IMG/VR virus record: IMGVR_UViG_3300008107_000002
DNA from: a virus
Taxonomy: Duplodnaviria; Heunggongvirae; Uroviricota; Caudoviricetes
Strand: one strand, 5' to 3'
DNA length: 64,000 bases
Positions within the stretch are counted from its first letter, which is position 1. The number at the start of each line of letters is the position of its first letter. A program made the translations under genes and the position numbers. Below the pieces are notes generated by a model that made no database searches, had not been told where the DNA came from, and saw only the letters and a program-made list of their open reading frames with translations. Shown here in pieces: positions 10,081 through 63,182 of the stretch.

Positions 10081-10162
10081 ATCACAAAGTCTCGTAAAGG
10101 GGCATACTGGGCCATAAAATACTCCGTATGGAATATTTATGCAGTTTTAACCAATTAGAAAT

Positions 10163-11322: not shown

Positions 11323-13549
11323 TTAATACTTCAAGGAAATTAAGTTTTAATTGATCGTCTTCGATTCCAATTTCTACTACTCCCCCTGCAGTTAGCTTAC
11401 CAAATAGTATTTCGCGGCTTAACGGTTTCTTAATGAATTCGTCAATGGTACGTTGCAATGGTCGAGCTCCCATCCGGCTGTCAAAGCCTTTAGTAATAAG
11501 AAATTCTACGGCATCTGTAGTTAATTTTGCGTGTACATTCTTATCTTTAAGTAATACATTGAGCTCGTCAATAAACTTCTTAACAATCTTAATCATAGTC
11601 AGATTATCAAGTTTACCAAATTTAATAATTCCATCTAACCGATTACGGAACTCAGGAGCAAAGAAACTATTAACTGCATCCTTTGGATCACCGTCTCGTT
11701 CAAGACTACCAAATCCTACACTATTCTTTTCAGCATCGGCCGCACCTAGATTCGAAGTCATAACAATAATAGCGTTTCTTCCATCGGCTTTTTTACCATT
11801 AGATCCAGTAACAAACCCGTTGTCCATAAGTTGTAACAATACTGTCAACACATCGGGGTGTGCTTTTTCAACTTCATCTAATAACAAAATACAATTAGGG
11901 TGTTCTTGTAGTTTAGTAATTAGCTGGCCGGCATTGTCCTCAAATCCCACATATCCCGGAGGTGCTCCAATAAATTTAGCCACAGAATGTTTTTCTTGAA
12001 ATTCACTCATATCAAATCGTACAAGCTGAACACTCATATTACTGGCTAGTTGTTTAGCAACTTCAGTCTTACCAACACCAGTTGGACCAACAAATAAGAA
12101 ACTACCAACTGGTTTGTTTAATGTTTTGAGTCCTGCTTGTGCAATAAAAATCTTATCTAGCAAAATATCGATTGCAGACTCTTGACCGTATACCTTACTC
12201 TTAAGATTTTTATCTAGGTCGCGCAAGTTTTGATTTTCTTTAGATGCAATTTGATCTAACGGCAATCCTGTAAGTTTGCTTACTTCAAATACAATTTCGT
12301 CGTGGTCAACAACTCCGGATTCTTCGTCTCGAACTTTAAATCGAGCACTTGCACAATCAATTAAATCAATTGCCTTATCCGGTAATTTTTTATCACTCAT
12401 ATATTTGGTGCTGTACTTAACAGCATCTATTACTGCTTGTTTAGTAATTTTAACACCATGGTGTTTTTCATAATATTTTTTAAGTCCCATAAGGATCTTA
12501 ATAGCTACTGCTTCACTAGGCTCGTCAATAGTAACACGTTGGAATCGACGCATTAGAGCACGATCCTTTTCAAAGTGTTTACGGAACTCTTCCCATGTAG
12601 TTGAAGCAATAACTTTAATGGTACCTTTACTGAGGGCCGGTTTAAGCATATTACTCATGTCATTGGTGTTACCGCTTACGCTGCCGGCACCGCTCATCAT
12701 ATGAGCTTCGTCAATAAACAATATACAATTCTTTTTCTTTTCAAGGGCGTTGATGACCATCTTAAGACGCTCTTCAAAATCACCGCGGTATTTGCTACCT
12801 GCCAACATAGCACTAATATCTAACGAATAGACTGTATGGCCTTGAATAAATTTAGGCACGGTGCCTTCTTCAATTCTTCGGGCTAATCCTTCTGCAATAG
12901 CAGTTTTACCTACTCCCGGATCCCCGATTAACATAACATTTGATTTAGTACGTCTTGCTAATACCAATGTTAATTCTTCAATTTCTTTTTCTCGACCAAT
13001 TACAGGGTCAATTTTCTTTGCTTTTACTTTAGCCGTTAGACTTGTGCAATATTGTACAATAATTTTTTCTAGATGACGATTACTTACTTCTTCTGCATCA
13101 GCGTCGTCAATTAACCCGCTTTCTTTATTAACGAATTCAATAAACTTATCTTTTTCAATTTTTGCTTTACGCATAAAATATAATGCGTGACTTTTCTTTT
13201 CGCTGAACAAACTAACAAAACAATCTACTGGTTCGATTTTATTACGGCCACTAAACAACACTTGCGTAAATGCTCGATTAAGCATTCTTTCTAATGCGTG
13301 AGTCTTTTTAGGTTTTGTTTCGGTGTCGGTTGTAATAATGCTCTGTAAATCGTTAGAAATAAAATTTAGCAGTTCTTTTTGTAATGGTACTACATTGGCA
13401 CCGTAACTAACCAACAGTTCTTTAAATTTTTCATTCTTAACTAAACTGTATAAGAAGTGTTCTAATGTAAGAAACTCGTGATTATATCCGGCTGCTACTT
13501 CAACAGCTTTTTCAAAAATTTCAGCTAAATTTTTATCTGGTTCTAGCAT
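11282..13549 (-). CDS. clpA: ClpA-like AAA+ unfoldase (two AAA modules, Clp N-domain, no ClpB middle domain)
   Basis: 755 aa; Walker A GDPGVGKTAIAEGLA (D1) and GPTGVGKTEVAKQLA (D2); size and architecture match ClpA. Confidence 0.9.
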   Translation of the reverse strand: MLEPDKNLAEIFEKAVEVAAGYNHEFLTLEHFLYSLVKNEKFKELLVSYGANVVPLQKELLNFISNDLQSIITTDTETKPKKTHALERMLNRAFTQVLFSGRNKIEPVDCFVSLFSEKKSHALYFMRKAKIEKDKFIEFVNKESGLIDDADAEEVSNRHLEKIIVQYCTSLTAKVKAKKIDPVIGREKEIEELTLVLARRTKSNVMLIGDPGVGKTAIAEGLARRIEEGTVPKFIQGHTVYSLDISAMLAGSKYRGDFEERLKMVINALEKKKNCILFIDEAHMMSGAGSVSGNTNDMSNMLKPALSKGTIKVIASTTWEEFRKHFEKDRALMRRFQRVTIDEPSEAVAIKILMGLKKYYEKHHGVKITKQAVIDAVKYSTKYMSDKKLPDKAIDLIDCASARFKVRDEESGVVDHDEIVFEVSKLTGLPLDQIASKENQNLRDLDKNLKSKVYGQESAIDILLDKIFIAQAGLKTLNKPVGSFLFVGPTGVGKTEVAKQLASNMSVQLVRFDMSEFQEKHSVAKFIGAPPGYVGFEDNAGQLITKLQEHPNCILLLDEVEKAHPDVLTVLLQLMDNGFVTGSNGKKADGRNAIIVMTSNLGAADAEKNSVGFGSLERDGDPKDAVNSFFAPEFRNRLDGIIKFGKLDNLTMIKIVKKFIDELNVLLKDKNVHAKLTTDAVEFLITKGFDSRMGARPLQRTIDEFIKKPLSREILFGKLTAGGVVEIGIEDDQLKLNFLEVLSVKEKSNAEIDNS

Positions 13550-14033
13550 TATTGGTCCTTTTCTTTGCTTTTTTTAGAGAAAGTGCCCATTTAAGTGGAC
13601 TTGTTCTATCTTGATAAACTATACCTTCTAGATGGTCATATTCGTGCAAGAAAGCTCTACAGGCAAATCCGTCTATTTCAGACTGCTGCCACTCACCGTC
13701 ACTATTCTGCCATCTAGCTGTAATTTTACTAGGTCTTTTAACTTTTGTAAAGACTCCTGGAAAACTTAAACAGCCTTCTTCACCGTCGTCACTACCGTCT
13801 GCATCTTCAATAATTGGATTGAAAATAGCAGTAGCATGTTCGCCTTGTCCGATGACAAACAATCTAGTACGAATGCCGACTTGATTGGCCGCAAGGCCTA
13901 CTCCGTTATTAGCAATCATTACTTCAATTAGTTCTTTTTCAAGTTGTTTTGGATTTTCAATAGGATCATTGAAATCAAAATCTGGCATTTTCTCTCTTAA
14001 AATAGGGTCAGGAAATTTAACTAGTTTTAACAT
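13533..14033 (-). CDS. def: peptide deformylase
   Basis: 166 aa; the three PDF motifs GVGLAANQVG, EGCLSFPG and HEYDHLEG are present. Confidence 0.92.
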   Translation of the reverse strand: MLKLVKFPDPILREKMPDFDFNDPIENPKQLEKELIEVMIANNGVGLAANQVGIRTRLFVIGQGEHATAIFNPIIEDADGSDDGEEGCLSFPGVFTKVKRPSKITARWQNSDGEWQQSEIDGFACRAFLHEYDHLEGIVYQDRTSPLKWALSLKKAKKRTNNARTR

Positions 14034-14041
14034 ATTATTTT

Positions 14042-14908
14042 TTAAGGTAAATGAAATTGATTTAAAAGCGTTCTTTGCTTTTGTGTAATATTTGTAGGAA
14101 CTACTATCTTAATTGGCATCAACAATCGACCTTTTAATCTAGAGTCGTTCATATTTGGCATTCCGTAGCCTTGTGCGCTCAATACTTGATCGTGTTGAAT
14201 TCCTGGTTCAACTTTAACTTCTAAAGTTTTTCCGTCTATTGTTAACACATCCATCTTACATCCTAGCATTGCCTCTATGCAAGATACTTCGATTATTTTA
14301 ACAAGGTCGTCGCCTTGTCTTGAAAACTCTGGATGCGGAATAATGTGTACCGTAAGATGAATGTCTCCCCTAGGCAAGTGAGGAAATTCGTTGTCCCCTA
14401 ACCCTGCTAGTCGTAATGTAGTTCCTGCATTAATTCCGGGAGGAATTTTTACATTAATAGTTTGTTTAGCACCACTTGGTAATTGAAGATCTGCAATAAG
14501 TTCTTTTCCTTGAAATGCTTCAAGCAAGGTAATTTGAGTAGTAAGATTTATTGTTCTATTTCTAACAGGTTGTCTTTGTCCAAAAATATTAAATGGATCT
14601 ACAGGCCCTTGCCCTCCAAAGAAGTGTTGAAACACTTCATGAAAGTTGTCGCTACGAAAATCAAAATTAGGCATTTGCTGACCGTGTCCTCCTGCATTCC
14701 ACCAGGGACTGCCGGGTTGTGGATTGTCATATGCACCCTTGCGTTCAGGATCACCGAGGATACTGTATGCTATTTGAATTTTTTTAAATTGTTCTTCGTC
14801 ACCACCTTTATCAGGATGGTGCTGATTAGCTAATTTTCTATAAGCAGTTTTTATGTCTGCCTCTGTTGCGTTTCTTTCAACGCCCAGTGTTTGATAATAA
14901 TCTTCCAT
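14042..14908 (-). CDS. DnaJ/J-domain co-chaperone (no Zn-finger CxxCxGxG; CbpA/type III-like)
   Basis: 288 aa; J-domain DYYQTLGV...YRKLANQHHPDKGGDEEQFKKIQIAYSILGDP with HPD tripeptide. Confidence 0.88.
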   Translation of the reverse strand: MEDYYQTLGVERNATEADIKTAYRKLANQHHPDKGGDEEQFKKIQIAYSILGDPERKGAYDNPQPGSPWWNAGGHGQQMPNFDFRSDNFHEVFQHFFGGQGPVDPFNIFGQRQPVRNRTINLTTQITLLEAFQGKELIADLQLPSGAKQTINVKIPPGINAGTTLRLAGLGDNEFPHLPRGDIHLTVHIIPHPEFSRQGDDLVKIIEVSCIEAMLGCKMDVLTIDGKTLEVKVEPGIQHDQVLSAQGYGMPNMNDSRLKGRLLMPIKIVVPTNITQKQRTLLNQFHLP

Positions 14909-14995
14909 AGTTGTTGTTATATAGCCTCCGCCATATATTTAATAGATCAAATTATAACCTATTATAATTTTATTCCAATAAAAAAGGCATAGTAC

Positions 14996-15024
14996 ATAGT
15001 ACTATACCTTTTTGGAATTGTCAA
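14996..15024 (-). promoter_or_regulatory. sigma70-like promoter TTGACA-17-TACTAT upstream of dnaJ-def-clpA gene string
   Basis: minus-strand TTGACA at 15024-15019, 17-nt spacer, TACTAT at 15001-14996; about 85 nt upstream of DnaJ start. Confidence 0.4.
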
Positions 15025-15031
15025 GTCTATT

Positions 15032-15274
15032 TTATTTCTTTTCTGGAACTTTTGTTCCTTCTAATTTTTTATGGACTTTTATAGTTTTACAAACTTGAAC
15101 AGGCTTTCCATCTTTGCCTTTTACTACGGCACCTTTGGAATCCTTTTTGTCTTCACAGACTTGTTTTTCCTCTCCACCTGCGTAAGCAGTCGATGCTATT
15201 GATAAACATAGTCCTGCTACAAATATATATTTTTTCATTTCATTTTCCTTATTTTTTTGAAGCAAATTTTTCAC
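15032..15274 (-). CDS. small secreted protein with cleavable signal peptide
   Basis: 80 aa (likely starts at internal MKKYIFVAGLCLSIASTAYAGG); Lys-rich, Cys-containing mature part. Confidence 0.45.
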   Translation of the reverse strand: MKNLLQKNKENEMKKYIFVAGLCLSIASTAYAGGEEKQVCEDKKDSKGAVVKGKDGKPVQVCKTIKVHKKLEGTKVPEKK

Positions 15275-26625: not shown

Positions 26626-27318
26626 TTAAAGTAATTTAATAATGAATGCTAACGAATAAAACGGAGGTAAATTAGCACCAGTAAGAATACTGCCTTCTTG
26701 ACTTGTAGTTAGACTAGTGTGAGCATACCATCCACTGGTACCGCTGCCTAATTGTGTTCCGCCTGGAGCTGATTGATTAACACCACTATAAGAATGTGTG
26801 TGTTCTCCTAGCGTTCCGTCTTTATTGCCTCCTGTTTTTACAAAGGCACCTGGTGTTACTGGATCAGCTTTAGCTGCCCCTTCATTATCTGCCGCCGCAC
26901 CTATAATAAATTGATTTCTTAAATCCGGACTAGGAGTTGCGCCGTTGTCATAGGTTGTTCCATCGCAGAATCCCCATCCTGCCGGAATAGTTGCAATAGA
27001 GCCATACCACATAACAATAGTACCTGGTGGTACACCTAGTCCTATACCATGTATTTCGCCACCTACCCATAAATCCCCACCGATTCCAACCCCACCGACA
27101 ACTTGTAAAGCTCCAGTATTGGTAGAACTTGATTCAGTTGTATTGGTAAATGTATTAACCTCTCCAATATTATTTTGTAGGGCACTTATTTCATTTTTAG
27201 CAACACCAAGTCCTGTTTTGATAGCTGTAAAGTTTGTACGAAACCCTTGGCTATCGTTATCTCGTCCAGGAGTTGGAAAGGTTGCATCGATTGTTATTGT
27301 TTGGATTGCACTTGTCAT
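26626..27318 (-). CDS. putative virion/fibre protein, paralog B
   Basis: 230 aa; N-terminus MTSAIQTITIDATFPTPGRDNDSQGFRTNFTAIKTGL; immediately downstream of giant structural gene. Confidence 0.6.
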   Translation of the reverse strand: MTSAIQTITIDATFPTPGRDNDSQGFRTNFTAIKTGLGVAKNEISALQNNIGEVNTFTNTTESSSTNTGALQVVGGVGIGGDLWVGGEIHGIGLGVPPGTIVMWYGSIATIPAGWGFCDGTTYDNGATPSPDLRNQFIIGAAADNEGAAKADPVTPGAFVKTGGNKDGTLGEHTHSYSGVNQSAPGGTQLGSGTSGWYAHTSLTTSQEGSILTGANLPPFYSLAFIIKLL

Positions 27319-30300
27319 TACGTTAAAAATCCTCTTTTAGGGAACAGCAAATATTTAGCACTAGAATTATCCTTGGTGTTTAACACGGTTATTCTATCTA
27401 AATCAAACGTAATAAGTTTAAAATCAATACCATATGTTTCGATCTTACGGATAATAAGTTGGCTATTACCAGGCAAGCAATAACATAGCGGTAAACAAAT
27501 AATTCTTCCTAAAGGAACCCCAGTATTATCCTGTACAGTTCTCATAAATTTTGGTAAAAGATCATCACTAGACGATGCAATGCTCTCTATGGCGCCCCGC
27601 ATACCGTCAATACTATTTGGATATATTGTTGTATCTCCATACTGAACTACCGGATTAATTGGAACTCCGCTGTCGTTTACTAAATTATCTATTAATTCTA
27701 CGTATACAACTTCGTATAGTTTGTCCCCGTTATCGTCAGTTGCAAATGCAGATTTAAGTTCTCCAAAATATAATCTTTTTCTATAAAAATAATTCTGTAA
27801 AGAATTTACATACTGTGCAATGTAAAGTTCTTGTACTCCCCATTCTAGAACAAATTCTAGGACCTTTTGAACTCCGAATGCAGGATCGTACGGTCTATAT
27901 AATAAAGAAAAATCAAATACTGAAGGATCGTTGATAAATGTATCCCAGTATAGTCGATCTTTAATGCTTAACAACGGATGTAATAGAATTTTTGTATATT
28001 TTTGTCCTTGGTAAGGCAATACTTGTACCTTAAAGTTTTTAACTAATTGACTACCTAAATTACTATCAATAGCCAATACATTAAATGAATAAGTTGTTGC
28101 AACAGTGGTAGCTGTATTATAAGGAACAACTCCTGCCAATGCGCCGTCTTGTGTAAGTCCTATACCAGGAGGTAAAGATCCACTCTGTAAAGAATATCTA
28201 ACTTTAATATTTGGATCGTCGTGTAGAGCTAGAATAGACAACTCACTTTGTTGACCTTGATATAAGGTACCAACGTTACTATCAGTAATAAATTTCATTT
28301 TACTAATAGTTGCGCCTTGAATAGTTATTGTAAAGTTTTTATCTCTAAAAGTAGTAATACCCGTAATTGGACTAGTCTTAAGTACTCGTACCTTAAATGA
28401 ATAAACTGAACTGTATACTGGAGTATATCTTAAATAACCACTCATAGTTCCAGAAATCTTATCTAAAACCATATCTTGTGGTAAAACTGGTAAGTCTTCA
28501 TTTACCTGTTCCCAATCAAATGTTATATTTCCAGTACCAGGATCACAGTCGTGTATTTCAAATTGAATAACTTGTTTTGTGTTTGCACGAATAGAACCTA
28601 GATCACTTGGTGTCAGCCATTGTGGAGCTACAGGATATTTTGATATATCTGATGAAGGATCATTTACATCAATTTGGTAAAGTTGTCTTGCAGTACCTGC
28701 CGCATTTGATGCAGTGATAATAAACTGATAAGTTTTATTAATAAATCTAGGACCCGAGCCTATTGCTTGTAGACTAACATGCTCAAACGGAGCCGCATCC
28801 CATCCCTGTTCATCAAATGCTCCGTTACTGGCTAATTGATAAAATAATGTTAAATTATCTTTTACTTGCCCATATAAATGACCGTCATTAGTAAGGACAA
28901 GACCTGGAGGAAGTTGTCCATCACCGTCGGCAATATGATATGTAATTTCTCTGCCTGGTCCTAATATATCAGTAGTAGCTGTAAATTGAAAATCTACAAT
29001 TTGACCGTTGATTAAATATTTTTCACCGCTTGGGCCCACGGCTGGTCTAATACCCGGAGTAATAAATCTAGGAGGTGTAGGTCCAAGTACATCTATCATG
29101 AAACTTCGGTCAACAACTCCGTATTGGTTATATGCTCTTATCACAAATTCTGAACGATCTGTTAACCAAACGACTGTCGGTACTCCGGAAATTACTCCAG
29201 TGGAAGTATTAAGTGTAAGGCCGTTAGGTAACGACCCGTTAATAAGTTGATACCGAACATTTGGTCCAGTTGCAGAAAGTGTAATAGATGCTGGTAATAA
29301 TTCAGTAACTATCGGAAGTAAACCTTGAGTAGTGACCCAGGTTGGCTTCACGGTGTTTGTTACAACTTGATCTGATAAGTTTCCAAAGAAGGTATTACCT
29401 ATAACATACGGGTAAGCAGGAACACCATTTTTATTTGTCATAAAGTATGCATATGTTCCTATTGGGTATTCAGGAGTTACGCAATATCTACCATTGTGAA
29501 TATCAAGTGTTGCTGTAGTGATCGAATATACATAATCTTCTACAAAAGCGCCATTTGGCCAATATGCAGTAATTGGAATATCAACTGAGATAGAAACAGA
29601 CCTATCAACTACTATAGTAGTGGTGTTTATCTGTAAAATAGTTGTATCTAGTTCTTTAGCTAGGCCAGCGGCAAATATTCTCATGCCAACTTGTAATCCT
29701 GTTACGCTCTGTAACAAAATTGTATTAGAGTCTGCAAAAAATTGAGTCCTTACTTCGACAGAGGGTGGTCTATTTGGCAGTATCTTTGTAGTATACCCTG
29801 AGGTCATTTGCTTAACGCCGCCAAGCGGACTTGTTGGATAAGCATATCCGTATGGTCCATATATAGGGTATCCGTCAGCCGCAAAGCCTATTACTCGACT
29901 ATGTCCGTCATCGTGAGTGTAATCTCCTAACCATCCCTGAGTATTAGCCCAGGCATTATTAGTAACAAATTTATCATTGAGATAATAGTAAGCACCAGTA
30001 TTATCTGGACCTCCACTATATGGATCTCTTGGCATAGTTTTAATATTAAAATTAGCATCTAAAGACCAAGTACTCGAATTAAGACCTGCTACAGTAGTTG
30101 ACCTAGGATTTCTAATAGGAATTCCAACAACTGTGATTCCTACAGTATTAGTAGTAGCATCTCGGTATATTGGAACTTCTGCTGGTACTCTTTCTCCTCC
30201 TCTGTAAGGATAAATTACATCAATTTTTTGATCAAGTACAGGAAATCTTATATACGAGTTTGGAAATGTGTCTGAGGTAACATAAGTTGTTCTACCTTTA

Positions 30301-33300
30301 GAAATTATTCTTAAAGAATTTTTATTAAGTAAATTTGCGTAAACTGTATTTTGAGAATTTTGTAAAAATAAATTTGCTGGATTTGTAAGTACTGCATTAC
30401 TTCTTATAACATTAAACTTATATAATGTTTGAGATACTTGGTCTCCAGCAGTTACGTCAATTACCACAGTAGTAGTTCCTGGAGGAGTCAATACTGGTTG
30501 ACTCCAAGTACCTGAAGTAACCAATAACCTCTGTACTCCCATTCTAGATTGACTATCAGCTGTAAATGGTTTTATTGATATAGCTTTAACATAAAATGGT
30601 AACTCAATAGTATAATCAGTTTTAGTAGAAGTAAACAATGATGTAAGTTTACCATTGCTTAAAATAATATTTGAAAGATAAGAGTTAGAACTTTTTGCTT
30701 TGACTACTGTTACGGTATAATTTTGAATAGTAGCATTGTCACCAGCCGTTACCCTAATCGTACTGGTAGTAACAGGATTAGGTAAATTGATGTAAGAAGA
30801 ATATTCTCCCGACAACACAATGTTTCCATTAATTCTTACAGTTGATTCATTGTTAGATTTGTATGGAGAAATTCTATATTTTGTAGCAGAACCGTCAACT
30901 GATAACGTATAGTTGTATACATTTTTGTTAAAAGCTGGTTTAAGTATTCCTATATCAGGTATCAAGTTTAACAAGTAAGCATCTGTGCTAGATCCAATGC
31001 CGGCCCTGTTTATAAAAATGTTGTAGCCTGTTATAGTTTCTTTACTAGGAGACTCAACTACTACTGGAATGTTTTGGTTCCCTACATATACTCTAAAATA
31101 TGGAGAATAAGTTCCAGGCTGAACAATAAAGTTATTGTTCATTAAAATTGTTGAATATATATCAGTGGGATCTGCTTTAATTCTTATTTGATCGGTTACA
31201 TATGGAAGATTAAGATAATACTCGTAAGTATTAGAATTAAACACAGGAGTAAATGAGCCAGGATCTACTACGAGATTATCTAAAGTAGAAACACCGCTAG
31301 CCAGTTTGGTAACATTAAGGGTATAAGTTTTTTGATATATTGGATTAGCGGCTATTACTTTAACTGTGATAACATTCAATCCGTTCCATACTCCGTTATT
31401 ATAATTTCCGGACAATGGGACTGATCTTGCTACTCCAGATGTTGCAGGTACATTATTAATAAGAAGTTGGGCGTTTTGATCGTTAGTAAATGCAGTAATT
31501 TCAGTATTGGCACTTGTACCAGATACTGTGTAACTGTACGATGTAATATCAGCATCGAAAACGGGGGAGAGTGTTCCTTCTCCCGGTATTAGATAAGATA
31601 AATTATTGTCATAGTTAGATTCTCTTAATGCATTTATAGTATAGGTAGTTGTGCTTTCCTGATTTTGAGAAATAACTTTAATTGTTATGGTGCTAACAGT
31701 TCCTACTGAAGTTGGTATATTAGTAGATGTAGTCCCAGACAAAATATTAACGTTATTAATAGCAATTGTACTAGTAGGATCTGAAGAAAAAGGTCTAATC
31801 TTAACACCGGTAGTTCTATACCCTATAGGAAGATTATATTGTGTAATAGAAGAATTAAACGCAGGAGTTAACGTTCCTCCAAACACAATAACATTTGACA
31901 GTGTTGATACGCTACTACCTTTTCGAGTAATTGTTAATGTATAAGTTTTTTGTACAGTACTGTTAGGAGAAGTAACTCTTATAGGAATAGAAGTAGTTCC
32001 TACTAAAATAGGAATAGGTTGACTGCTTGCACCGGATAATGTTGTAGCACCATTAATAGAAAGCCCAGCACTAGCATCCCAAGTATTTGCAGTTATTGAT
32101 ATTGTTTTAATATCATTATTAACTAGAGCAGAGTACGCAACTGTGCTAGATGAGAATGAAGGAATTAAGGAACCTTCTGCAAAAGTTAATGAAGATAAGT
32201 CAGCATTAGAACTTAAATCTCGTAAAACATTTACTCTATAATTGTGTTCAGTAGTGTTATCAGAAGATTTTATTTTGCCAGTTATAACATTAATGCCTGT
32301 GGATAGACCACTTAATGTATATTGTTGACCGCTAGGAGTAAGTACACCATTAAAATATAATTGAGACCCTGAGTCAATAACTGTTCCAGTTAAAGAAATA
32401 CCAGTTATTGAATTTGGAATAGTTACATTATAATAGAAAGTATTTTTGTTAAAGCTAGGTGTAAGTGTTCCAGTTGATACAGATAGATTAGTAAGTAATG
32501 AAACGTTGCTTAATCTTATTGCTGTAATATAATAAGTTTTTGTTGTTCCGTCTTGAGCCGTAACTTCGACACTGATGTTATTGTAACCGAAGCTTAATGG
32601 TACAATTCCAATTTGTCCAGATATAACCGTACTTGTATTAACTTTAACTGTCGCAAATGAATTTGCAACAGTTGGTACAATATATAAATTAGTGTCTGTT
32701 TCAGTGACTACAATAGTATAAGATGTTACTGTTGGAGTAAACACCGGCGAAAGAGATGACGGGCTTACTAAAAGTGAAGACAGATTGTTATTAGAACTTT
32801 TAAGCCTGTCAATTGTAATAATATAAGTTCCGGTAGTTTGGTATTGTGATGAAACACTTATTGTAGCAGTTGTTAGTCCAACAATTAATGGAATAACAGG
32901 CCCTGTGGTACCAGAAATTACTGTAGTGGTGTTAACTTTTATAAACGATGTATCGGTAGAAACACTAGGTGTAAAATTTACAGATGATACAGTGTTTGTT
33001 ATTGTTAAATTATAATTTAAAACATTAGAATTAAATGCCGGTGACAACGTTCCGCTACTAACGGTAAGATTAGATAGAGTGATGTTATTGTTGTCAGCAG
33101 TAATTGGTCCATAGAAGTTTAGGCCAACAATGTACGGAAAATACGGAACACCAGTTGATGTTTCTGATAAAAAATATGCGTATGTGCCTTCTGGGTATTC
33201 GGGTGTTCGACAGAACCTTCCGTTATACACATCTAGCGTTACTCCGGTAGTATTGCTCCATGCCCAGTCTTCCATGAATATACCTAGAGGGAAAGACGCG

Positions 33301-34130
33301 GTAAGAGCTGTTCCGCTAGGTATATTAACTGTTTTGTTAAGTGTAATTTGTACACCAACGATTTTCATAATTCGAACATCATTGGGTAATCCGCCGCCGG
33401 TAACACTCATTCCAAGACCAAGTCCAGCCGCACTATAAACTAATAATTGTGTAGATGAAGTTACAGTTCCATTTACAATTAGTGTTTTAGTTGGTGGTCG
33501 GTTAGCCTTATTAACAGGATAAAATCCCGAAACCATTCTTATTACGGTACTGGCAGTATTCAATGCGCTCGAATAACCGTACGGTCCATATATAGGATAT
33601 CCGTCTCTTGCCCATCCTATAATTTTGCTGTGGCCGTCTTGAGATCTATAACCTGCTTCCCAAGTACTATCGGTTATAGTTCCCCAAGCATTATTACTAA
33701 CAAATCTTCCATCTTTGTAATTGTATGCTCCACTTGATGTTACGGCACCGCCATACAGGTCTTCACCTTGGATCCCTGCTTCAACTGCGTTTAATGTCCA
33801 AGCAGTATTGTTAAGCCCGTTAACATTAATGCCTGAACTTGGTCCGTAAAGAATAATTCCTACAGAAGTAATACCAATTGGGGTACTGCCCCCAGTTGCA
33901 GGTTTGATAGTTGCGGCAATAGTTTTACCACCACGTACTGGCCAGGTAAAATTAAAACTTTGTGATGCTATTGAATTAGAATTCTGTGTATTTGGAAAAG
34001 TTCCAACAGATACAGTGCCAAGTAAATTAAGTGTAGTAATCGCCCAAGTGGTCGCAGTTGTACTATAGTTTACTGTTAATTGACCGCCGGCACCATTGCC
34101 TGAAAAAGAGGTGCTAGGATTAAACGCCAT
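27318..34130 (-). CDS. giant adhesin-like structural protein (2270 aa) with internal duplication, cadherin-like beta-sandwich repeats and putative Ig (He_PIG-like) domains
   Basis: 6.8 kb ORF; two copies of a module containing DGHSxxIGxAxDGYPIYGPYGY and RxCxTPEYPxGTYAYF; about 8 repeats of LSxLxVSxGTLxPxFxxxxxxYxxxV; GSLPNGLTLNTSTGVISG Ig-like segment. Confidence 0.85.
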   Translation of the reverse strand: MAFNPSTSFSGNGAGGQLTVNYSTTATTWAITTLNLLGTVSVGTFPNTQNSNSIASQSFNFTWPVRGGKTIAATIKPATGGSTPIGITSVGIILYGPSSGINVNGLNNTAWTLNAVEAGIQGEDLYGGAVTSSGAYNYKDGRFVSNNAWGTITDSTWEAGYRSQDGHSKIIGWARDGYPIYGPYGYSSALNTASTVIRMVSGFYPVNKANRPPTKTLIVNGTVTSSTQLLVYSAAGLGLGMSVTGGGLPNDVRIMKIVGVQITLNKTVNIPSGTALTASFPLGIFMEDWAWSNTTGVTLDVYNGRFCRTPEYPEGTYAYFLSETSTGVPYFPYIVGLNFYGPITADNNNITLSNLTVSSGTLSPAFNSNVLNYNLTITNTVSSVNFTPSVSTDTSFIKVNTTTVISGTTGPVIPLIVGLTTATISVSSQYQTTGTYIITIDRLKSSNNNLSSLLVSPSSLSPVFTPTVTSYTIVVTETDTNLYIVPTVANSFATVKVNTSTVISGQIGIVPLSFGYNNISVEVTAQDGTTKTYYITAIRLSNVSLLTNLSVSTGTLTPSFNKNTFYYNVTIPNSITGISLTGTVIDSGSQLYFNGVLTPSGQQYTLSGLSTGINVITGKIKSSDNTTEHNYRVNVLRDLSSNADLSSLTFAEGSLIPSFSSSTVAYSALVNNDIKTISITANTWDASAGLSINGATTLSGASSQPIPILVGTTSIPIRVTSPNSTVQKTYTLTITRKGSSVSTLSNVIVFGGTLTPAFNSSITQYNLPIGYRTTGVKIRPFSSDPTSTIAINNVNILSGTTSTNIPTSVGTVSTITIKVISQNQESTTTYTINALRESNYDNNLSYLIPGEGTLSPVFDADITSYSYTVSGTSANTEITAFTNDQNAQLLINNVPATSGVARSVPLSGNYNNGVWNGLNVITVKVIAANPIYQKTYTLNVTKLASGVSTLDNLVVDPGSFTPVFNSNTYEYYLNLPYVTDQIRIKADPTDIYSTILMNNNFIVQPGTYSPYFRVYVGNQNIPVVVESPSKETITGYNIFINRAGIGSSTDAYLLNLIPDIGILKPAFNKNVYNYTLSVDGSATKYRISPYKSNNESTVRINGNIVLSGEYSSYINLPNPVTTSTIRVTAGDNATIQNYTVTVVKAKSSNSYLSNIILSNGKLTSLFTSTKTDYTIELPFYVKAISIKPFTADSQSRMGVQRLLVTSGTWSQPVLTPPGTTTVVIDVTAGDQVSQTLYKFNVIRSNAVLTNPANLFLQNSQNTVYANLLNKNSLRIISKGRTTYVTSDTFPNSYIRFPVLDQKIDVIYPYRGGERVPAEVPIYRDATTNTVGITVVGIPIRNPRSTTVAGLNSSTWSLDANFNIKTMPRDPYSGGPDNTGAYYYLNDKFVTNNAWANTQGWLGDYTHDDGHSRVIGFAADGYPIYGPYGYAYPTSPLGGVKQMTSGYTTKILPNRPPSVEVRTQFFADSNTILLQSVTGLQVGMRIFAAGLAKELDTTILQINTTTIVVDRSVSISVDIPITAYWPNGAFVEDYVYSITTATLDIHNGRYCVTPEYPIGTYAYFMTNKNGVPAYPYVIGNTFFGNLSDQVVTNTVKPTWVTTQGLLPIVTELLPASITLSATGPNVRYQLINGSLPNGLTLNTSTGVISGVPTVVWLTDRSEFVIRAYNQYGVVDRSFMIDVLGPTPPRFITPGIRPAVGPSGEKYLINGQIVDFQFTATTDILGPGREITYHIADGDGQLPPGLVLTNDGHLYGQVKDNLTLFYQLASNGAFDEQGWDAAPFEHVSLQAIGSGPRFINKTYQFIITASNAAGTARQLYQIDVNDPSSDISKYPVAPQWLTPSDLGSIRANTKQVIQFEIHDCDPGTGNITFDWEQVNEDLPVLPQDMVLDKISGTMSGYLRYTPVYSSVYSFKVRVLKTSPITGITTFRDKNFTITIQGATISKMKFITDSNVGTLYQGQQSELSILALHDDPNIKVRYSLQSGSLPPGIGLTQDGALAGVVPYNTATTVATTYSFNVLAIDSNLGSQLVKNFKVQVLPYQGQKYTKILLHPLLSIKDRLYWDTFINDPSVFDFSLLYRPYDPAFGVQKVLEFVLEWGVQELYIAQYVNSLQNYFYRKRLYFGELKSAFATDDNGDKLYEVVYVELIDNLVNDSGVPINPVVQYGDTTIYPNSIDGMRGAIESIASSSDDLLPKFMRTVQDNTGVPLGRIICLPLCYCLPGNSQLIIRKIETYGIDFKLITFDLDRITVLNTKDNSSAKYLLFPKRGFLT

Positions 34131-34216
34131 AACAAGGTTCCCAATTAAATGCTAACATTATCCAAAGATTTTCTGTCATACAGGTATTTACCTAAAACAG
34201 AAAACCTTTCTAATGC

Positions 34217-35041
34217 TTAAATTTCAAATAATTGTGTAATCTCGTCTCTTATATCTTCGTAAGGAACAATGTTTATAGCCTGTCCTTGAAAGCCGTCTAA
34301 TATAATTTTTATGGCCTTTTTCATATCTATACCCTTACTTTGTAGGTAGTATAGTTTATCAAAATTAAGATAGGAAGTACTACATCCTTGTGAAGATTCT
34401 ACGCCGTCACAGTCTACGTGTATATCAGGCTTACTGTAACATCTTCCGTTTTCTCCTATAACTAGGTTTGAAGATTCTATGTGGGTTTCGCTGCCGTCCG
34501 ATCCTTGTTCTAAAACAGACATTGATTGAAAAACTGTCTGACTATCTTTGCCTGCTATTCCTAAAATAACTTGATTACTAACGGTATCACAATGTCGATG
34601 AACTGTTTTAGTAATAATTTCGGTATCGCCACCAACTGTATTCATCATAAGACCGTAAGCATTAAATTCGCTACCTTCTTCGGGATACACTTGAATAATG
34701 TGCTTGTTTAACTTTCCGCCCTTGACAAATATTCCAAAATTGATTGCTCCGCCTTCTTCAACATGAACATCGTACAAAAATACTTGTTGAAGTTTGCTAT
34801 CTGCCTCATTAATAACAATAAGATCTAATTTAGCTTCAGCTTTTACATTGATCTTTATATGCTTCGCAAGCAGTTCTTTTTCAGTTGGATTTTGTCTTAA
34901 TACCATCATGTTTACTTGTTTTTCTGCAAGTTCGACAGTATTTGCATCGATAAGTTTAAATTCCTTACCTATGTATTTTTCTGGGCTGTATTGCCAATCC
35001 GGGTCGCCCTTTTCGGCTTTAAGAAAACTGTGAATCGCCAT
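34217..35041 (-). CDS. sufD: SufD/SufB-family (SUFBD beta-helix) protein, short form
   Basis: 274 aa; 23-nt overlap with sufC upstream as in suf operons; C-terminal SufBD-like region (GIFVKGG...QSMSVLEQGSDGSETHIESSNLVIG...YLQSKGI). Confidence 0.7.
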   Translation of the reverse strand: MAIHSFLKAEKGDPDWQYSPEKYIGKEFKLIDANTVELAEKQVNMMVLRQNPTEKELLAKHIKINVKAEAKLDLIVINEADSKLQQVFLYDVHVEEGGAINFGIFVKGGKLNKHIIQVYPEEGSEFNAYGLMMNTVGGDTEIITKTVHRHCDTVSNQVILGIAGKDSQTVFQSMSVLEQGSDGSETHIESSNLVIGENGRCYSKPDIHVDCDGVESSQGCSTSYLNFDKLYYLQSKGIDMKKAIKIILDGFQGQAINIVPYEDIRDEITQLFEI

Positions 35042-35744
35042 CTTCTATAATCCTTTTATATAATTCTTTATTACCCTGTTCTTTAATTTCGCCAGATACT
35101 AGGATGTGTACATGAGTGGGATTTACGGCATCTAATATTTTTTTATTGTTGCTAATAATTAATATACATTTGTCTTCATTAATATAGCTATTTAAAATAG
35201 TAGATACAATATCAATGTCCTCGTCTTCCATGTGTACATCAATATCGTCTATGAGAATAAAATCAGGATCACACATAAGCATTTGTAATAATTCATTCTT
35301 CTTAAGATCTGATTTTGATATATCGTCATAATCCATAAACTTTTGAGAATGAAATTTTTCCATACTTAAAAGGTCGCAGAACGAATTGTAATCTTTTTCT
35401 ATTTCTTGTTCGTTTCGTGGATCTGATCTTGATTTAAGGGTAGCCTTAACAAGTTCAATATTGATGAGTCCGGGTATTTCTGGCGGGTATTGAAATGTTG
35501 AAAACATTCCTAATCTAGCACGATCTTCTGCATCTAATTTTTTAAGATTTTTATTTTTATATGTAATACTGCCTTCTGTTTGTATAAGGCCCGGGTGTCC
35601 GCTTATAAGATGGATTAGACTACTTTTTCCAGATCCTCTTGGACCTAGTATAGCGTGTACTTCTCCTTTTTTAATTTCTAACGAAACATTTTTTAGTAAT
35701 TCTTTATGGTCTATTACGGCAGACACGTTTTTTATTGTTAGCAT
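35019..35744 (-). CDS. sufC: SufC Fe-S cluster assembly ATPase (ABC-type)
   Basis: 241 aa; Walker A GPRGSGKSS, SufC-like LGMFSTFQYPPEIPG, ABC signature and Walker B LILIDD/IDVHMED. Confidence 0.88.
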   Translation of the reverse strand: MLTIKNVSAVIDHKELLKNVSLEIKKGEVHAILGPRGSGKSSLIHLISGHPGLIQTEGSITYKNKNLKKLDAEDRARLGMFSTFQYPPEIPGLINIELVKATLKSRSDPRNEQEIEKDYNSFCDLLSMEKFHSQKFMDYDDISKSDLKKNELLQMLMCDPDFILIDDIDVHMEDEDIDIVSTILNSYINEDKCILIISNNKKILDAVNPTHVHILVSGEIKEQGNKELYKRIIEDGDSQFS

Positions 35745-35751
35745 TTTTTTA

Positions 35752-35780
35752 ATTATAATAGTTTATGACAGATTTGTCAA
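35752..35780 (-). promoter_or_regulatory. sigma70-like promoter TTGACA-17-TATAAT immediately upstream of sufC (near-leaderless)
   Basis: minus-strand TTGACA 35780-35775, 17-nt spacer, TATAAT 35757-35752; -10 ends 8 nt from the sufC ATG. Confidence 0.5.
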
Positions 35781-35881
35781 AGTTAAGGTTTGTTTTTGTC
35801 TCCTCCTATGCTATCAATAATATTTTACTCGAATATTTATGATAGGTAAATAAATGCACTTATTTTTAAAGGATTTCTATC

Positions 35882-36184
35882 ATGGAATTAATTTTCGGAC
35901 TTATTTTTATTGGATTAGTAGGAGTATACCTATACAACAGGAAGACTACAGAAACTTCAACATCAGTTGCTGAGGCAGCTCCAGTTGCTGAAGAAGTTAA
36001 ACCAGTTGTTGAGGCAGCTCCGGTTGTTGAGGCAGCTCCGGTTGTTGAGGCAGCTCCTGCAAAGGCAGCACGTAAACCACGTACTCCTAAAGCAGTTGCA
36101 AAGCCATCCGCTACCAAGCCCGCCGCAAAAAAGCCAGCAGTTAAAAAGCCAGCCGCACGTACTGCCAAGTCAAAGAAGGCCTAA
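35882..36184 (+). CDS. small membrane-anchored Pro/Ala/Val-repeat, Lys-rich (histone H1/AlgP-like tail) protein
   Basis: 100 aa; N-terminal TM LIFGLIFIGLVGVYLY, (E)AAPVVE x4, C-terminal AKPSATKPAAKKPAVKKPAARTAKSKKA; AAAGGA RBS 8 nt upstream; an antisense ORF (35866..36168) is the alternative reading. Confidence 0.5.
   Translation: MELIFGLIFIGLVGVYLYNRKTTETSTSVAEAAPVAEEVKPVVEAAPVVEAAPVVEAAPAKAARKPRTPKAVAKPSATKPAAKKPAVKKPAARTAKSKKA
36002..36055. repeat. 3 x 18-bp perfect/near-perfect tandem repeat (ccRgttgttgaggcagct)
   Basis: 36002-36019, 36020-36037 and 36038-36055 are identical except the third base of the first unit; encodes PVVEAA units. Confidence 0.8.
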
Positions 36185-37210
36185 TTCTTTAGCCTGCTTG
36201 TGTAAAGCAAAACTAGCTAAATTTTTACCTTTTGATTCGGCCATAATGTCGAATCGATCTAAAAAGCTCAAAGCCCATTCGTTGGTACTTTTATTCCAAT
36301 AGAAGTCAGAATGTGCTCTGAGCTTTTGTTTTTTATATCCATTCTCTAAAAGACTCTTGTAGTCAGGGACTACAGAAGGGTCATGATCCACGAGATAATC
36401 TTCGCGGCTGATAGAGTAATGCATAGTAGGCCGAACACCGCGCCAAGACTGAACCACCCGATCAACACGGGAGTCCACGGGGGAGATATATTCGCCTGTT
36501 TTAATCCAATGGTGATGAATATCAAGAACGATAGGTACCAAATCAGTAAGCTCAATACAATCATCTAACCCCCAGGCGTTTTCTTCGTTTTCAATGGTGA
36601 TACAGTTTCTTGCTTCGGGGGTAAGTCTTTTGTAGGCAGTTCGAATACCTTCGGGACCTTGTTTACCCGAGATGTGTACGTTGATTTTAAAATCCTGGAA
36701 TTGTTTACCGAAGCCCATCCACCTGACCATATCTGCATGATATTCAAATTCCTCTATTGATCTTTCTACAATACCTGGATTACAACTTGCCAGCACAGTA
36801 AACTGACCAGGATGAAAAGACAACCGAACGTTATTCTTGCGAGCCAGATCTCCCACGGATCTAAATTCTCTTTCGCAATACGCTCGAACATCGGAAAGCC
36901 GCCAAAACCTGCTCCAAACTGACTGAGTATATACAGGTAATATATCGCTACTGAGTCGTACCATTCTACAATTTTCATCTAGTGTGCTCACACGTTCGAC
37001 CAGCTTTCGAGTAGATTCAATGTTACCTACCATAAGGTCCCATAGCTTTTGTTCTGCTACTTCTGTGGTCTGTCTATTTAACCATGCAACGGTTGTAGAG
37101 CCAGTATTATATTGTTTAGCGTCATCTTTTGCATTTATGCCATTTACTTGATCGGGATGATCAATCCATTTACATGCAAAACCAATTTTAGGAATTTTGA
37201 TATTTTTCAA
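36170..37210 (-). CDS. uvdE: UV DNA damage endonuclease (UvdE/UvsE family)
   Basis: 346 aa; blocks RLSSDILPVYT, LSFHPGQFTVLAS, NVHISG, ITIENEE and LDIHHHW align with B. subtilis UvsE (RFSSSIVPLATH, TSFHPNQFTLFTS, NIHIGG, TLENDD, FDFHHF). Confidence 0.8.
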   Translation of the reverse strand: MKNIKIPKIGFACKWIDHPDQVNGINAKDDAKQYNTGSTTVAWLNRQTTEVAEQKLWDLMVGNIESTRKLVERVSTLDENCRMVRLSSDILPVYTQSVWSRFWRLSDVRAYCEREFRSVGDLARKNNVRLSFHPGQFTVLASCNPGIVERSIEEFEYHADMVRWMGFGKQFQDFKINVHISGKQGPEGIRTAYKRLTPEARNCITIENEENAWGLDDCIELTDLVPIVLDIHHHWIKTGEYISPVDSRVDRVVQSWRGVRPTMHYSISREDYLVDHDPSVVPDYKSLLENGYKKQKLRAHSDFYWNKSTNEWALSFLDRFDIMAESKGKNLASFALHKQAKELGLL

Positions 37211-37679
37211 GGAGTTCAGGACTGTATTGAGGAATATTAATTATACTTGATTCTTCTAGTTTTGTCAATTCCAATTCGTATACTCTGCGCCTGAGGTCGC
37301 TACTGCTATATTGGTGTTTTCGCTTATGGTAATGTAATTCAATACCGTTATTAAGGCAATATTGCTTTCCGGTAAAATCTCTATTCAAATATTCTTCACT
37401 CAAAAATCTTACATGAATAGTTTGAGTTTGTATTAAGTTAAGAAGATCTTGTTCTGTTTCGTATACAAGGATTTCATCTACATATTTACAACCTTGTAAC
37501 TGAACATATCTTTCGTAAACACTCTGAACGGGCTTATTTTTTATTCCCGGACGATCTACGGTAGGATCTACTTGTAACGCAACTATTAAATAGTCGCATA
37601 AGTTTTTTTCCATTTTTAACATTGTTACATGTCCTGCATGAAACAAATCAAAAGAACTACAATTAAAACCTATTTTCAT
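37188..37679 (-). CDS. cytidylyltransferase-family nucleotidyltransferase, paralog 2
   Basis: 163 aa; CSSFDLFHAGHV signature; clearly paralogous to 22131..22595 (shared LCDYLIVALQ/LIAALQ...DPT(V/I)DRP...VYET(E)QDL). Confidence 0.8.
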   Translation of the reverse strand: MKIGFNCSSFDLFHAGHVTMLKMEKNLCDYLIVALQVDPTVDRPGIKNKPVQSVYERYVQLQGCKYVDEILVYETEQDLLNLIQTQTIHVRFLSEEYLNRDFTGKQYCLNNGIELHYHKRKHQYSSSDLRRRVYELELTKLEESSIINIPQYSPELLEKYQNS

Positions 37680-51564: not shown

Positions 51565-52155
51565 TCACGTGAAACTGAGTTCCCGGCTTACTGTCTCTTT
51601 TACAACTTCATGGTCCATCCAGGTAACATCTGGATTCTTACCCCAATTGACCTTCATTGTTTCTTGCCATTCGTGTGCCTTTTCAAGAGCTTCATCCATT
51701 GATGATGCTTCTACATCAAACACAAAACGAATATCCAAATCTACTTTAAATCTATCGTTGCTCATAATACTTTCCTGATTAAAATTGATATTGCTGTAAT
51801 TTATATTACCGATGTCTTCTAGATATTCTAGAATAAGTTCTTCAGTGTCTACATGGGTGAAAGACACGTTATCCCAAGCATTATTAGGATCTAAACCTCT
51901 ATCATTACTTTCTTTATAATATGCATCTCGAAAATCTAAATTAATCCATCTGTATGCCTGCGTGTGATTCGGCACCTCTACTACAATTTCATAAACAGTT
52001 TGTGTTTCTCGATCAAAGACGCAATGAGCGTAGGGCTTTTTGTCAATGTTTTGGAAATCAAGAATTTGTGAATTAGTTCCATAACATTGCCAACCGTAGT
52101 CACTACCTCCAGTGATCCTACTTCCAGCGGCATTGATTACATTAGTAAAGTTCAT
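51565..52155 (-). CDS. hypothetical protein
   Basis: 196 aa ORF with its own promoter. Confidence 0.55.
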   Translation of the reverse strand: MNFTNVINAAGSRITGGSDYGWQCYGTNSQILDFQNIDKKPYAHCVFDRETQTVYEIVVEVPNHTQAYRWINLDFRDAYYKESNDRGLDPNNAWDNVSFTHVDTEELILEYLEDIGNINYSNINFNQESIMSNDRFKVDLDIRFVFDVEASSMDEALEKAHEWQETMKVNWGKNPDVTWMDHEVVKETVSRELSFT

Positions 52156-52160
52156 AGTTC

Positions 52161-52189
52161 ATTATATTGTAAATTATAACAGTTGTCAA
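52161..52189 (-). promoter_or_regulatory. sigma70-like promoter TTGACA-17-TATAAT (near-leaderless)
   Basis: minus-strand TTGACA 52189-52184, spacer 17, TATAAT 52166-52161; the ATG of the downstream gene is at 52155. Confidence 0.5.
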
Positions 52190-63145: not shown

Positions 63146-63182
63146 GAATGACGATACTATATAGGTATAAATGTCAAAGAAA

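Follow-up and report, generated by a model that had tools for sequence, protein, structure and literature searches.

A reduced SufC-SufD gene pair with a leaderless-type promoter in an uncultured jumbo phage lineage

The sufC*-sufD* locus and its two products

The window analyzed here, a whole stretch of 64,000 nucleotides (nt) from the IMG/VR virus record IMGVR_UViG_3300008107_000002, carries on its minus strand two overlapping genes related to sufC and sufD of the SUF system, a stress-resistant pathway of iron-sulfur (Fe-S) cluster assembly. On the basis of open reading frames (ORFs) and profile matches, the upstream gene, sufC* (35019..35744, -), starts with ATG and encodes a SufC-like protein of 241 amino acids (aa), and the downstream gene, sufD* (34217..35041, -), also starting with ATG, encodes a shortened SufD-like protein of 274 aa. 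The 3' end of sufC* and the 5' end of sufD* share 23 dual-coding nt (35019..35041, -), an arrangement that the first-pass annotation had likened to bacterial sufCD operons, and rightly so: in E. coli, sufC and sufD share 26 nt with the same frame relation. Among 47 related loci the overlap is again 23 nt in 36, with values of 11, 20, 29, 32, or 38 nt in the rest, and the frame relation is identical in all 47. An AAGGA motif lies 9 nt before the sufD* ATG, within the sufC* coding region, and together with the overlap it points to translational coupling of sufD* to sufC*.

The phage of the window is a T4-like jumbo myophage; the T4-like DNA polymerase encoded there is 50% identical to that of Sinorhizobium phage Phosso and 42% identical to the polymerases of GAP32-type jumbo phages that infect E. 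coli, Cronobacter, and Yersinia. No close relative of the window was found among 50,697 GenBank phage records. The pair thus consists of host-derived metabolic genes for Fe-S biogenesis on a bona fide phage genome.

SufC* matches ABC_tran in Pfam (4e-18), and its best NCBIfam family is TIGR01978 sufC, at 195.2 bits against a curated equivalog cutoff of 212.8 bits, the next family, UrtD, reaching 74 bits; its sequence matches in the PDB include the SufCs of E. coli and Thermus thermophilus (1.6e-37). The Walker A motif (GPRGSGKSS), the Q-loop (FQYPPEIPG), the Walker B Asp, and the SufC-type C terminus are all kept. The protein is nevertheless not the canonical SufC that it had been taken for at first pass. 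In a residue-by-residue alignment with E. coli SufC, the ATP-binding cassette (ABC) signature reads ISKSD instead of FSGGE, Walker B reads IDD instead of LDE (Glu171 replaced by Asp), the D-loop reads VHME instead of SGLD, and the H-loop His203 is replaced by Asn; of the two loops that had been proposed for inspection, the Q-loop is therefore retained and the D-loop lost.

These changes were counted over 50 cluster representatives of the phage SufC* family and 44 cellular SufCs from the same search. Lys40 and Gln85 are universal in both sets (50/50 and 44/44). The signature glycines, present in 44/44 cellular sequences, are found in 0/50 (Gly148) and 2/50 (Gly149) phage sequences; the SGG of the signature is not intact in any of the 50 representatives, a semi-conserved loop, M-S-P-S-E-F, stands in its place, and the D-loop is lost family-wide. 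His203 is kept in 29/50 phage versus 44/44 cellular sequences and Glu171 in 47/50 versus 44/44, the window copy being among the three that have Asp. The family ends in a cysteine-free ...EDG(D/Y)SQFS, and Cys123, Cys158, and Cys193 of the window copy are not conserved. Judged by its motifs, SufC* keeps what is needed for nucleotide binding (the P-loop Lys and the Walker B Asp) and for docking to SufD (the Q-loop and the C terminus) and lacks the elements predicted to close the ATP sandwich (signature and D-loop), the window copy being without the catalytic Glu and the H-loop His as well.

For SufD*, the match to Pfam SUFBD_core (PF01458) is strong (2.4e-32; 112.7 bits against a cutoff of 27), and the best NCBIfam family is TIGR01981 sufD, at 130.1 bits against a curated equivalog cutoff of 222. 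Profile scores place it closer to SufD (63 bits) than to SufB (48 bits), the NCBIfam SmsB family matches at 1.4e-4 only, PDB sequences rank E. coli SufD (8.6e-8) ahead of SufB (2e-5), and in PHROGs it falls into phrog_12033, a SufBD-like family of unknown function (4e-19). The profile search proposed at first pass thus returned SufC and SufD as the best families, although neither protein attains the NCBIfam level for a bona fide equivalog.

An AlphaFold2 model of SufD* built from 62 family sequences (mean predicted local distance difference test score [pLDDT], 86.9) consists of a two-sheet beta-helix over residues 30 to 224 followed by three C-terminal helices. It fits best to E. coli SufD (1vh4, 2zu0, and 5awf_B), with a template modeling (TM) score of 0.79 and a root mean square deviation of 2.2 to 2.4 Å over about 241 columns, compared with TM scores of 0.55 to 0.66 for SufB and 0.60 for Methanocaldococcus jannaschii SmsB. 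In this model, SufD* keeps the SufD beta-helix and the C-terminal helices that would dock SufC. The profile matches, the predicted SufD fold, and the grouping of SufC* with SufCs from complete phage operons in a neighbor-joining (NJ) tree (see below) together uphold the SufC/SufD descent claimed for the pair.

The shortening of SufD* (274 aa versus 423 aa in E. coli) affects its N-terminal half: the helical domain is reduced to a short peptide, and, judged from the sequence spacing, the beta-helix seems to have lost about 100 residues from its N-terminal part. The remaining peptide is conserved as M-A-I-H-S-F-L-K...D13-P-D-W16...P20; residues 1 to 33 have low model confidence, and the first seven to eight codons of the peptide, unlike the rest, double as coding sequence for the conserved SufC tail. 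A D-x-W-x-Y-S-P motif resembles E47-N-W-K-Y-T-P53 of E. coli SufD. At the positions that hold cluster ligands in SufB and SufD, profile and pairwise alignments place Ser190 (SufB Cys405), Gln218 (SufD His360/SufB His433), and Gly219 (SufB Glu434), and the region homologous to SufB Cys254 is absent, so that SufD*, as aligned, is without any canonical cluster ligand. The C-terminal His of SufD, which the first-pass annotation had singled out for checking, is accordingly not conserved in the two-gene family, where its position is variable and most often Ile; relatives with full or intermediate operons keep it. Cys201 is present in 118/119 SufD* family sequences, His114 is invariant, and His148 is nearly so; both histidines also occur in E. 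coli SufD. Four residues are essential in vivo in E. coli (PMC6006206), namely, SufC Lys40, Glu171, and His203 and SufD His360, and the window pair has lost three of them.

Gene content states, distribution, and selection in related phages

To place the pair in context, 49 IMG/VR loci retrieved with the SufD* family profile and one 136-kilobase (kb) ENA contig were searched with Suf and Isc proteins. The look for sufCD in related phage genomes that the first-pass annotation had proposed thus found the genes in three gene content states, all directly downstream of the gene for the UV damage endonuclease UvdE (36170..37210, -, in the window), which anchors the synteny on the upstream side of the SUF slot in every related locus. 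State A (L070, L071, L076, L083, and L087) has the order superoxide dismutase (SOD)-(ORF)-sufB-sufC-sufD-sufS-sufE-sufT-sufA, followed by a giant protein; its SufC is fully canonical (ASGGEK, LDEIDSGLD, and ITHQ), and in its short SufD (274 to 276 aa) the 360 position is His, whereas the 201 position is Ala except in one locus (L076), which has Cys. In state B (L073 to L075 and L077 to L082; contigs of up to 245 kb), a small divergent ORF is followed by sufC-sufD-sufS-(SOD, sufA)-iscU-iscA without sufB; SufC there has the signature SAGE or TPSE and Walker B DD, and the short SufD keeps His360 and has no Cys201. State C/D (L035 to L069 and the window) retains only (SOD)-sufC*-sufD* ahead of the fiber gene, with signature and D-loop lost and the H-loop variable in SufC*, and with His360 mostly lost and Cys201 invariant in SufD*.

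The state A operon of L087 (positions 9058 to 15153) sits between UvdE and a giant 3185-aa protein, and L087 is collinear with the window over 36 to 46 kb (ClpP, 76% identity; UvdE, 73%; five other ORFs, 37 to 62%). Because of this collinearity, the state A contigs are regarded as relatives of the same phage lineage and not as cellular DNA. The complete phage operons have the UvdE slot, a short SufD with MAI(E/H)SFLK...DPDW, and the length and C terminus of SufC in common with the window pair, and they differ from it in encoding SOD and SufB, S, E, T, and A, in having a canonical SufC led by a Shine-Dalgarno (SD) sequence, and in a SufD that bears His360 and lacks Cys201 in four of five cases. 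In the NJ tree all phage SufCs form one clade apart from 45 cellular SufCs, within which states A plus B and the two-gene state C/D are sister clades, the C/D branches being longer (0.35 versus 0.25). Since state A shares canonical characters and operon order with the cellular outgroup, loss of sufB, S, E, T, and A in C/D is far more parsimonious than stepwise gain, and the inferred direction, as read from these sequences, is reduction of a complete operon to sufCD. The window itself agrees with the earlier remark that no sufB, sufS, or sufE lies nearby: tblastn detected no homolog of SufB, SufS, SufE, SufA, IscU, IscA, or SOD in its 64 kb, and Pfam detected none of these families among the 53 ORFs of 15 to 64 kb.

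Proteins of the SufD* type (about 274 aa) form more than 120 intact clusters at 90% identity, 50 to 95% identical to the window copy, on metagenomic and IMG/VR contigs of up to 355 kb. SufC* forms about 50 clusters, separated from cellular SufC by a gap in score (at least 211 bits and 43% identity within the family versus at most 164 bits and 39% outside it). Between close pairs, the ratio of nonsynonymous to synonymous substitution rates (dN/dS) is 0.04 to 0.10 for sufC* and 0.02 to 0.04 for sufD*, which argues that both genes are functional and under strong purifying selection. The possibility that the pair is a pseudogene or relic was rejected on these values, and a decaying, functionless remnant of the lost operon is very improbable: degenerate essential motifs and the rapid evolution of SufC* would fit it, and they are outweighed by the low dN/dS (0.02 to 0.10), by intact ORFs of conserved length across the SufD* and SufC* clusters, and by conservation of the overlap, the promoter geometry, and the invariant residues.

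The pair was found on viral or metagenomic contigs only. A scan of 185,579 GTDB species (one genome each) yielded no phage-type SufD*, only two unrelated matches at 21% identity; its patterns were tailored to the two-gene clade and could miss cellular relatives of the full-operon short SufD. At the nucleotide level the cassette matched no GenBank phage, and a 25-kb megablast returned a single 34-nt match in the DNA polymerase. The tblastn matches of SufD* among GenBank phages were confined to Staphylococcus records, which we read as host DNA or flank, and those of SufC* and of phage-type SufB were low-identity matches in Staphylococcus, Listeria, and Enterococcus records and in uncultured fecal "Bacteriophage sp." contigs; none of these Gram-positive matches, read as host DNA or flank, resembles the short-SufD pair. 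The nearest named cellular SufCs (Apibacter, Brumimicrobium, Sulfurospirillum, and Chlamydiales) are at most 39% identical and uninformative. Phage-type SufB, at least 71% identical within its clade and at most 70% identical to the cellular SufBs retrieved, failed as a guide to donor or host, its matches forming a flat plateau of 66 to 70% across many phyla.

No phage SufC/SufD pair and no whole suf operon on this lineage was found in the searchable full-text literature. The viral Fe-S genes that are known are A-type carriers (SufA/IscA) and IscU of marine T4-like phages (PMC5332604); like the pair described here, they are Fe-S biogenesis genes of T4-like or large phages in which radical SAM enzymes are encoded as well, and they differ from sufC* and sufD* in that their products are small carriers or scaffolds whose ligands are intact. 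The only deposited "phage" with sufBCD is Microcystis phage MaAM05/PhiMa05, which has an annotated sufBCDS-iscU cluster and whose viral nature is contested (PMC13623518). Its SufD is of full-length cellular type (451 aa), cellular-type panB and panC lie nearby, and its SufC is 32% identical to SufC*; given the cellular-type full-length genes and the contested status, we set it aside as a precedent. The fold and the descent of the pair are thus known, and what is new is a short SufD without His360, a SufC without signature and D-loop, the two-gene remnant of a phage SUF operon, and its leaderless expression as predicted below. An uncultured jumbo phage lineage carrying the whole SUF pathway (SOD plus sufBCDSETA) appears unreported in the literature that could be searched, and it provides a natural reduction series from seven to five to two genes in which the survivors, SufC and SufD, are the SUF components whose individual roles are least understood.

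Promoter geometry and predicted leaderless expression

Upstream of sufC*, the minus strand reads TTGACA-AATCTGTCATAAACTAT-TATAAT-TAAAAAA-ATG, which matches the sigma-70 consensus at 12/12 positions with a 17-nt spacer. The -35 hexamer lies at 35775..35780 (-), the -10 hexamer at 35752..35757 (-), and the intervening TAAAAAA, which contains no SD sequence, at 35745..35751 (-); the promoter lies in the divergent intergenic region beside a small ORF (35882..36184, +). The perfect TTGACA-17-TATAAT promoter reported at first pass is therefore present, its -10 hexamer ending 7 nt before the ATG. Perfect TTGACA-N17-TATAAT sites number 8 in the window against 0.03 expected, and because of this excess the sufC* promoter can be taken as a member of a real class and not a chance match. 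All eight lie on the minus (gene) strand between 35.7 and 57.6 kb (35752 to 57599), with none in 1 to 34 kb, and the block that contains them is probably early, that is, transcribed by the host RNA polymerase. The part of the window free of such sites, 1 to 34 kb, is the replication and structural half.

The start of sufC* appears secure, since the N terminus of SufC* aligns from Met1 with Met1 of E. coli SufC, which identifies the annotated ATG as the true start; the sufC start codon is ATG in 47/47 related loci. We then compared 31 distinct upstream regions of two-gene loci, scoring as a promoter any match to at least 9 of the 12 sigma-70 positions. A promoter whose -10 hexamer abuts the sufC* ATG is present in 29 of the 31, with a gap of 6 nt in 21, 5 nt in five, 7 nt in two, and 9 nt in one, and one further locus has the same geometry with 8/12 positions; the spacer in two-gene loci is 17 nt in 27 cases and 18 nt in 3. 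None of the 31 regions has an SD-like motif within 15 nt of the sufC* start, and the last 20 nt before the start in type C/D relatives contain one weak SD-like site, at -19 in L047. This geometry is kept while the identity of SufC* to the window copy drops to about 36%.

A gap of 6 nt places the canonical +1 at the A of the AUG. With the 7-nt gap of the window, transcription is expected to begin at the A preceding the ATG or at the A of the ATG itself, giving a leader of 0 to 1 nt. The comparative data thus strengthen the leaderless or very-short-leader reading offered at first pass, and a leaderless sufC* transcript is predicted, with strong comparative support from the conservation of these upstream sequences. 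In states A and B, sufC has no abutting promoter and is preceded by an AAGG/AGGA-type SD sequence, which ties the abutting promoter to the event that made sufC the first gene. Leaderless mRNA has a phage precedent in lambda cI, whose transcript from PRM begins on or beside the A of the AUG, has no SD sequence, and depends on an obligatory AUG; by comparison, the geometry of sufC*-sufD* is deduced from sequence and from its recurrence in those 29 loci, and it heads a bicistronic early unit. Conservation of the abutting promoter over such divergence is comparative evidence, of unusual strength, that leaderless expression of a phage early gene has been under selection.

Leaderless geometry as a general trait of this phage was considered and rejected, since just one more of the eight perfect promoters lies directly against an ATG. 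This second site (52161..52189, -) ends 5 nt before the ATG at 52155 of a 196-aa ORF (51565..52155) without a family match, and its geometry is common to the nearest relative (L013) only, the more distant homologs having an AAGGAG-type SD sequence. Another perfect promoter (37240..37268, -) lies inside the 3' end of a cytidylyltransferase-like ORF (region 37188 to 37268), 29 nt before the TTG listed as the start of UvdE; the true UvdE start may be further downstream.

At the other end of the unit, a strong predicted hairpin containing TTAGGTAAATA (34154..34217, -; fold z-score, -4.25) begins at the final base of the sufD* stop codon. It probably marks where the bicistronic unit ends on its 3' side and/or provides a promoter for the fiber gene that follows; hairpin and TTAGGTAAATA may form a combined terminator and promoter for that gene. 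The TTAGGTAAATA element is kept after sufD* in most two-gene relatives, within hairpins of differing stem sequence. The motif GGTAAATA has two sites in the window, at 34154 to 34217 (-) and at 35845 to 35852 (+), which flank the sufC*-sufD* cassette divergently, the downstream site sitting within the hairpin of z -4.25; with two copies in the window and no enrichment, it was rejected as a general late promoter.

Possible roles of the pair and the surrounding genes

We hypothesize, with a probability of roughly 0.5, that sufC* and sufD* encode a reduced SUF scaffold pair, expressed as a self-contained early unit, that acts as an accessory or modulator through a poorly hydrolyzing SufC2D2-like complex. 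In an ancestral jumbo phage, the whole sufB-C-D-S-E-T-A operon would have occupied the slot that UvdE and a giant tail-fiber-like gene enclose; in the window lineage, everything but sufC and sufD would have been lost, and a promoter would have come to abut the sufC ATG. An mRNA with a leader of 0 or 1 nt would then yield linked amounts of SufC* and SufD* immediately after infection, and the two proteins might assemble either into a complex of two SufC* and two SufD* subunits or into a hybrid with host SufB/SufC. Such a complex would bind ATP and hardly hydrolyze it, and it would serve host Fe-S assembly as an accessory or modulator, e.g., in iron handling or by docking on host scaffolds, rather than as an autonomous E. 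coli-type scaffold. A SufB-independent role of SufC-SufD is argued for by state B, in which the pair occurs without sufB beside SufS, IscU, and IscA, and SufD has been linked to iron acquisition (PMC6006206). Hijack of host Fe-S assembly, which the first-pass annotation had also raised, or its modulation may be a role of the pair.

Several points weigh against the accessory or modulator hypothesis. Complex formation, nucleotide binding, and an effect on Fe-S assembly are all deduced from sequence; use of SUF by the host is an assumption; and the window is probably a fraction of a much larger genome (contigs of collinear relatives reach about 370 kb), the rest of which could contain sufS, sufB, or iscU. 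By E. coli criteria, SufD would be nonfunctional once His360 is gone, as would SufC in the absence of Glu171 and His203, and a positive helper role therefore needs an undescribed mechanism. Replacement of the lost ligands by Cys201 is not an obvious solution, as this residue is predicted from the secondary-structure register to lie half a beta-helix turn from the canonical ligand positions. Finally, sufC* is the fastest-evolving gene of its neighborhood (identities between the window and L010 are 95% for the epimerase, 81% for UvdE, 74% for SufD*, and 62% for SufC*), which could fit an antagonistic role.

A bolder proposal, possible though doubtful in our view, is that a stripped phage SUF operon gave rise to a new two-protein Fe-S module that works without ATP turnover, SufB, or canonical ligands, either as a Cys201-based minimal scaffold or iron-delivery device or as a phage weapon that captures host SufB/SufC. 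If this were true, the separate role of SufC and SufD, long debated, would become directly testable in a natural minimal system. On any reading, survivors that lack E. coli-essential residues and yet remain under purifying selection offer a ready test of SufC and SufD roles apart from SufB.

An antagonistic function taken by itself would mean that SufD*, with or without SufC*, displaces host SufD/SufC on host SufB early in infection, so that host SUF is locked or misdirected and Fe-S supply is shut down or redirected. The retention of docking features (Q-loop, C-terminal helices, and beta-helix) alongside the loss of catalytic and ligand residues is what such dominant-negative proteins would show, a consensus host-type promoter and the fast evolution of SufC* relative to its neighbors are compatible with it, and the SufD* N-terminal peptide (D13-P-D-W16 and P20), highly conserved and modeled with low confidence, looks like a partner-binding motif. 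However, the pair goes back to a complete phage operon that apparently promoted assembly, its neighbors (UvdE, AhpD, and, in relatives, SOD) protect the cell rather than damage it, host SufB has to be presupposed, and the gain of an invariant Cys suggests new chemistry over mere blocking. We consider this explanation unlikely.

Less probable again is that the two proteins are canonical auxiliary metabolic gene products that work like bacterial SufC2D2 within SufBC2D and add host SUF capacity for phage Fe-S enzymes, which is close to what the first-pass annotation had proposed. The best profile matches are indeed to SufC and SufD, the arrangement is operon-like, the window encodes a radical SAM enzyme, and the full-operon relatives have a canonical SufC and a His360-bearing SufD. 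The resemblance to E. coli SufC2D2/SufBC2D (2zu0 and 5awf) extends to the SufC-type Q-loop FQYPxEIPG and C terminus, to the SufD beta-helix and helical domain (TM score, 0.79), and to the overlapping genes. It ends with the absence of a SufB partner, of His360, and of the signature and D-loop and with the Glu171-to-Asp and His203-to-Asn changes; moreover, the E. coli suf genes lie inside an operon, whereas the phage pair has its own leaderless-type promoter. With signature and D-loop lost in all two-gene members, His203 kept in only 29/50, the E. coli-essential residues Glu171, His203, and SufD His360 replaced by Asp, Asn, and Gln in the window (PMC6006206), and both proteins short of the NCBIfam equivalog cutoffs, it is unlikely that the pair simply boosts Fe-S assembly as a SufCD core working in the E. 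coli manner.

Two further explanations seem to us improbable to an equal degree. In one, the complex of two SufC* and two SufD* subunits would be a stand-alone minimal scaffold that builds or carries a cluster through Cys201 (two per dimer), His114, and His148, in the manner of the SMS system of M. jannaschii (SmsC-SmsB; 9h78). SMS likewise consists of two genes, for an ATPase and a SufB/D-like beta-helix protein of similar size (289 residues in 9h78_B; TM score, 0.60) that form a C2B2 heterotetramer, Cys201 appears exactly in the clade that has lost sufB, sufS, and His360, and His114 is invariant and His148 nearly invariant. Nevertheless, SmsC keeps the ABC ATPase motifs and the cluster cysteines and SufC* keeps neither; and SufD* is closer to SufD than to SmsB. 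The SMS cluster sits on the C-terminal cysteines of SmsC (PMC12192291), and an equivalent site on SufC* was rejected for want of conserved cysteines; in addition, His114 and His148 occur in E. coli SufD as well and hence are not new ligands, and the window holds no sulfur donor. In the other, the pair would have taken on a function unrelated to Fe-S, such as that of a nucleotide-gated adaptor for another phage or host process. The loss of all residues for Fe-S chemistry and ATP turnover while fold and pairing are kept, and the replacement of the signature by the M-S-P-S-E-F loop, would suit this explanation, but nothing speaks positively for another function, and the pair stays in the stress and Fe-S island of its complete-operon relatives.

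This neighborhood is a UV and oxidative-stress island comprising UvdE, an AhpD-like protein, a HemN-like radical SAM protein, and, in relatives, SOD. The radical SAM gene (61862 to 63689, -) is HemN/HemW-like, with weak matches far below cutoffs, and is adjoined by an AhpD-family alkylhydroperoxidase-like gene. Between UvdE and sufC*, the small divergent ORF (35882..36184, +), a neighbor kept in many relatives, encodes an N-terminal hydrophobic stretch that, judged by eye, is probably a transmembrane helix, and an Ala/Lys/Pro-rich tail in which PVVEAA occurs three times ahead of a KP/AK-rich stretch; it has no Pfam match. On the sufC strand, an AGGAGG at 35801 to 35806 (-), about 57 nt upstream of the sufC* ATG, is not followed by an ORF in the window and is kept in several relatives together with an upstream inverted repeat of the ATCAA...TTGAT type. 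Directly downstream of sufD* lies a giant, tail-fiber-like protein of 2270 aa (27318 to 34130, -), which has no match in L087, whose slot holds the 3185-aa protein; in a related contig, the 2270-aa protein at the same position has YHYH, cadherin-like, and He_PIG domains, and the N-terminal 600 aa of the giant protein are 43 to 89% identical to the sufD* neighbors in several two-gene relatives.

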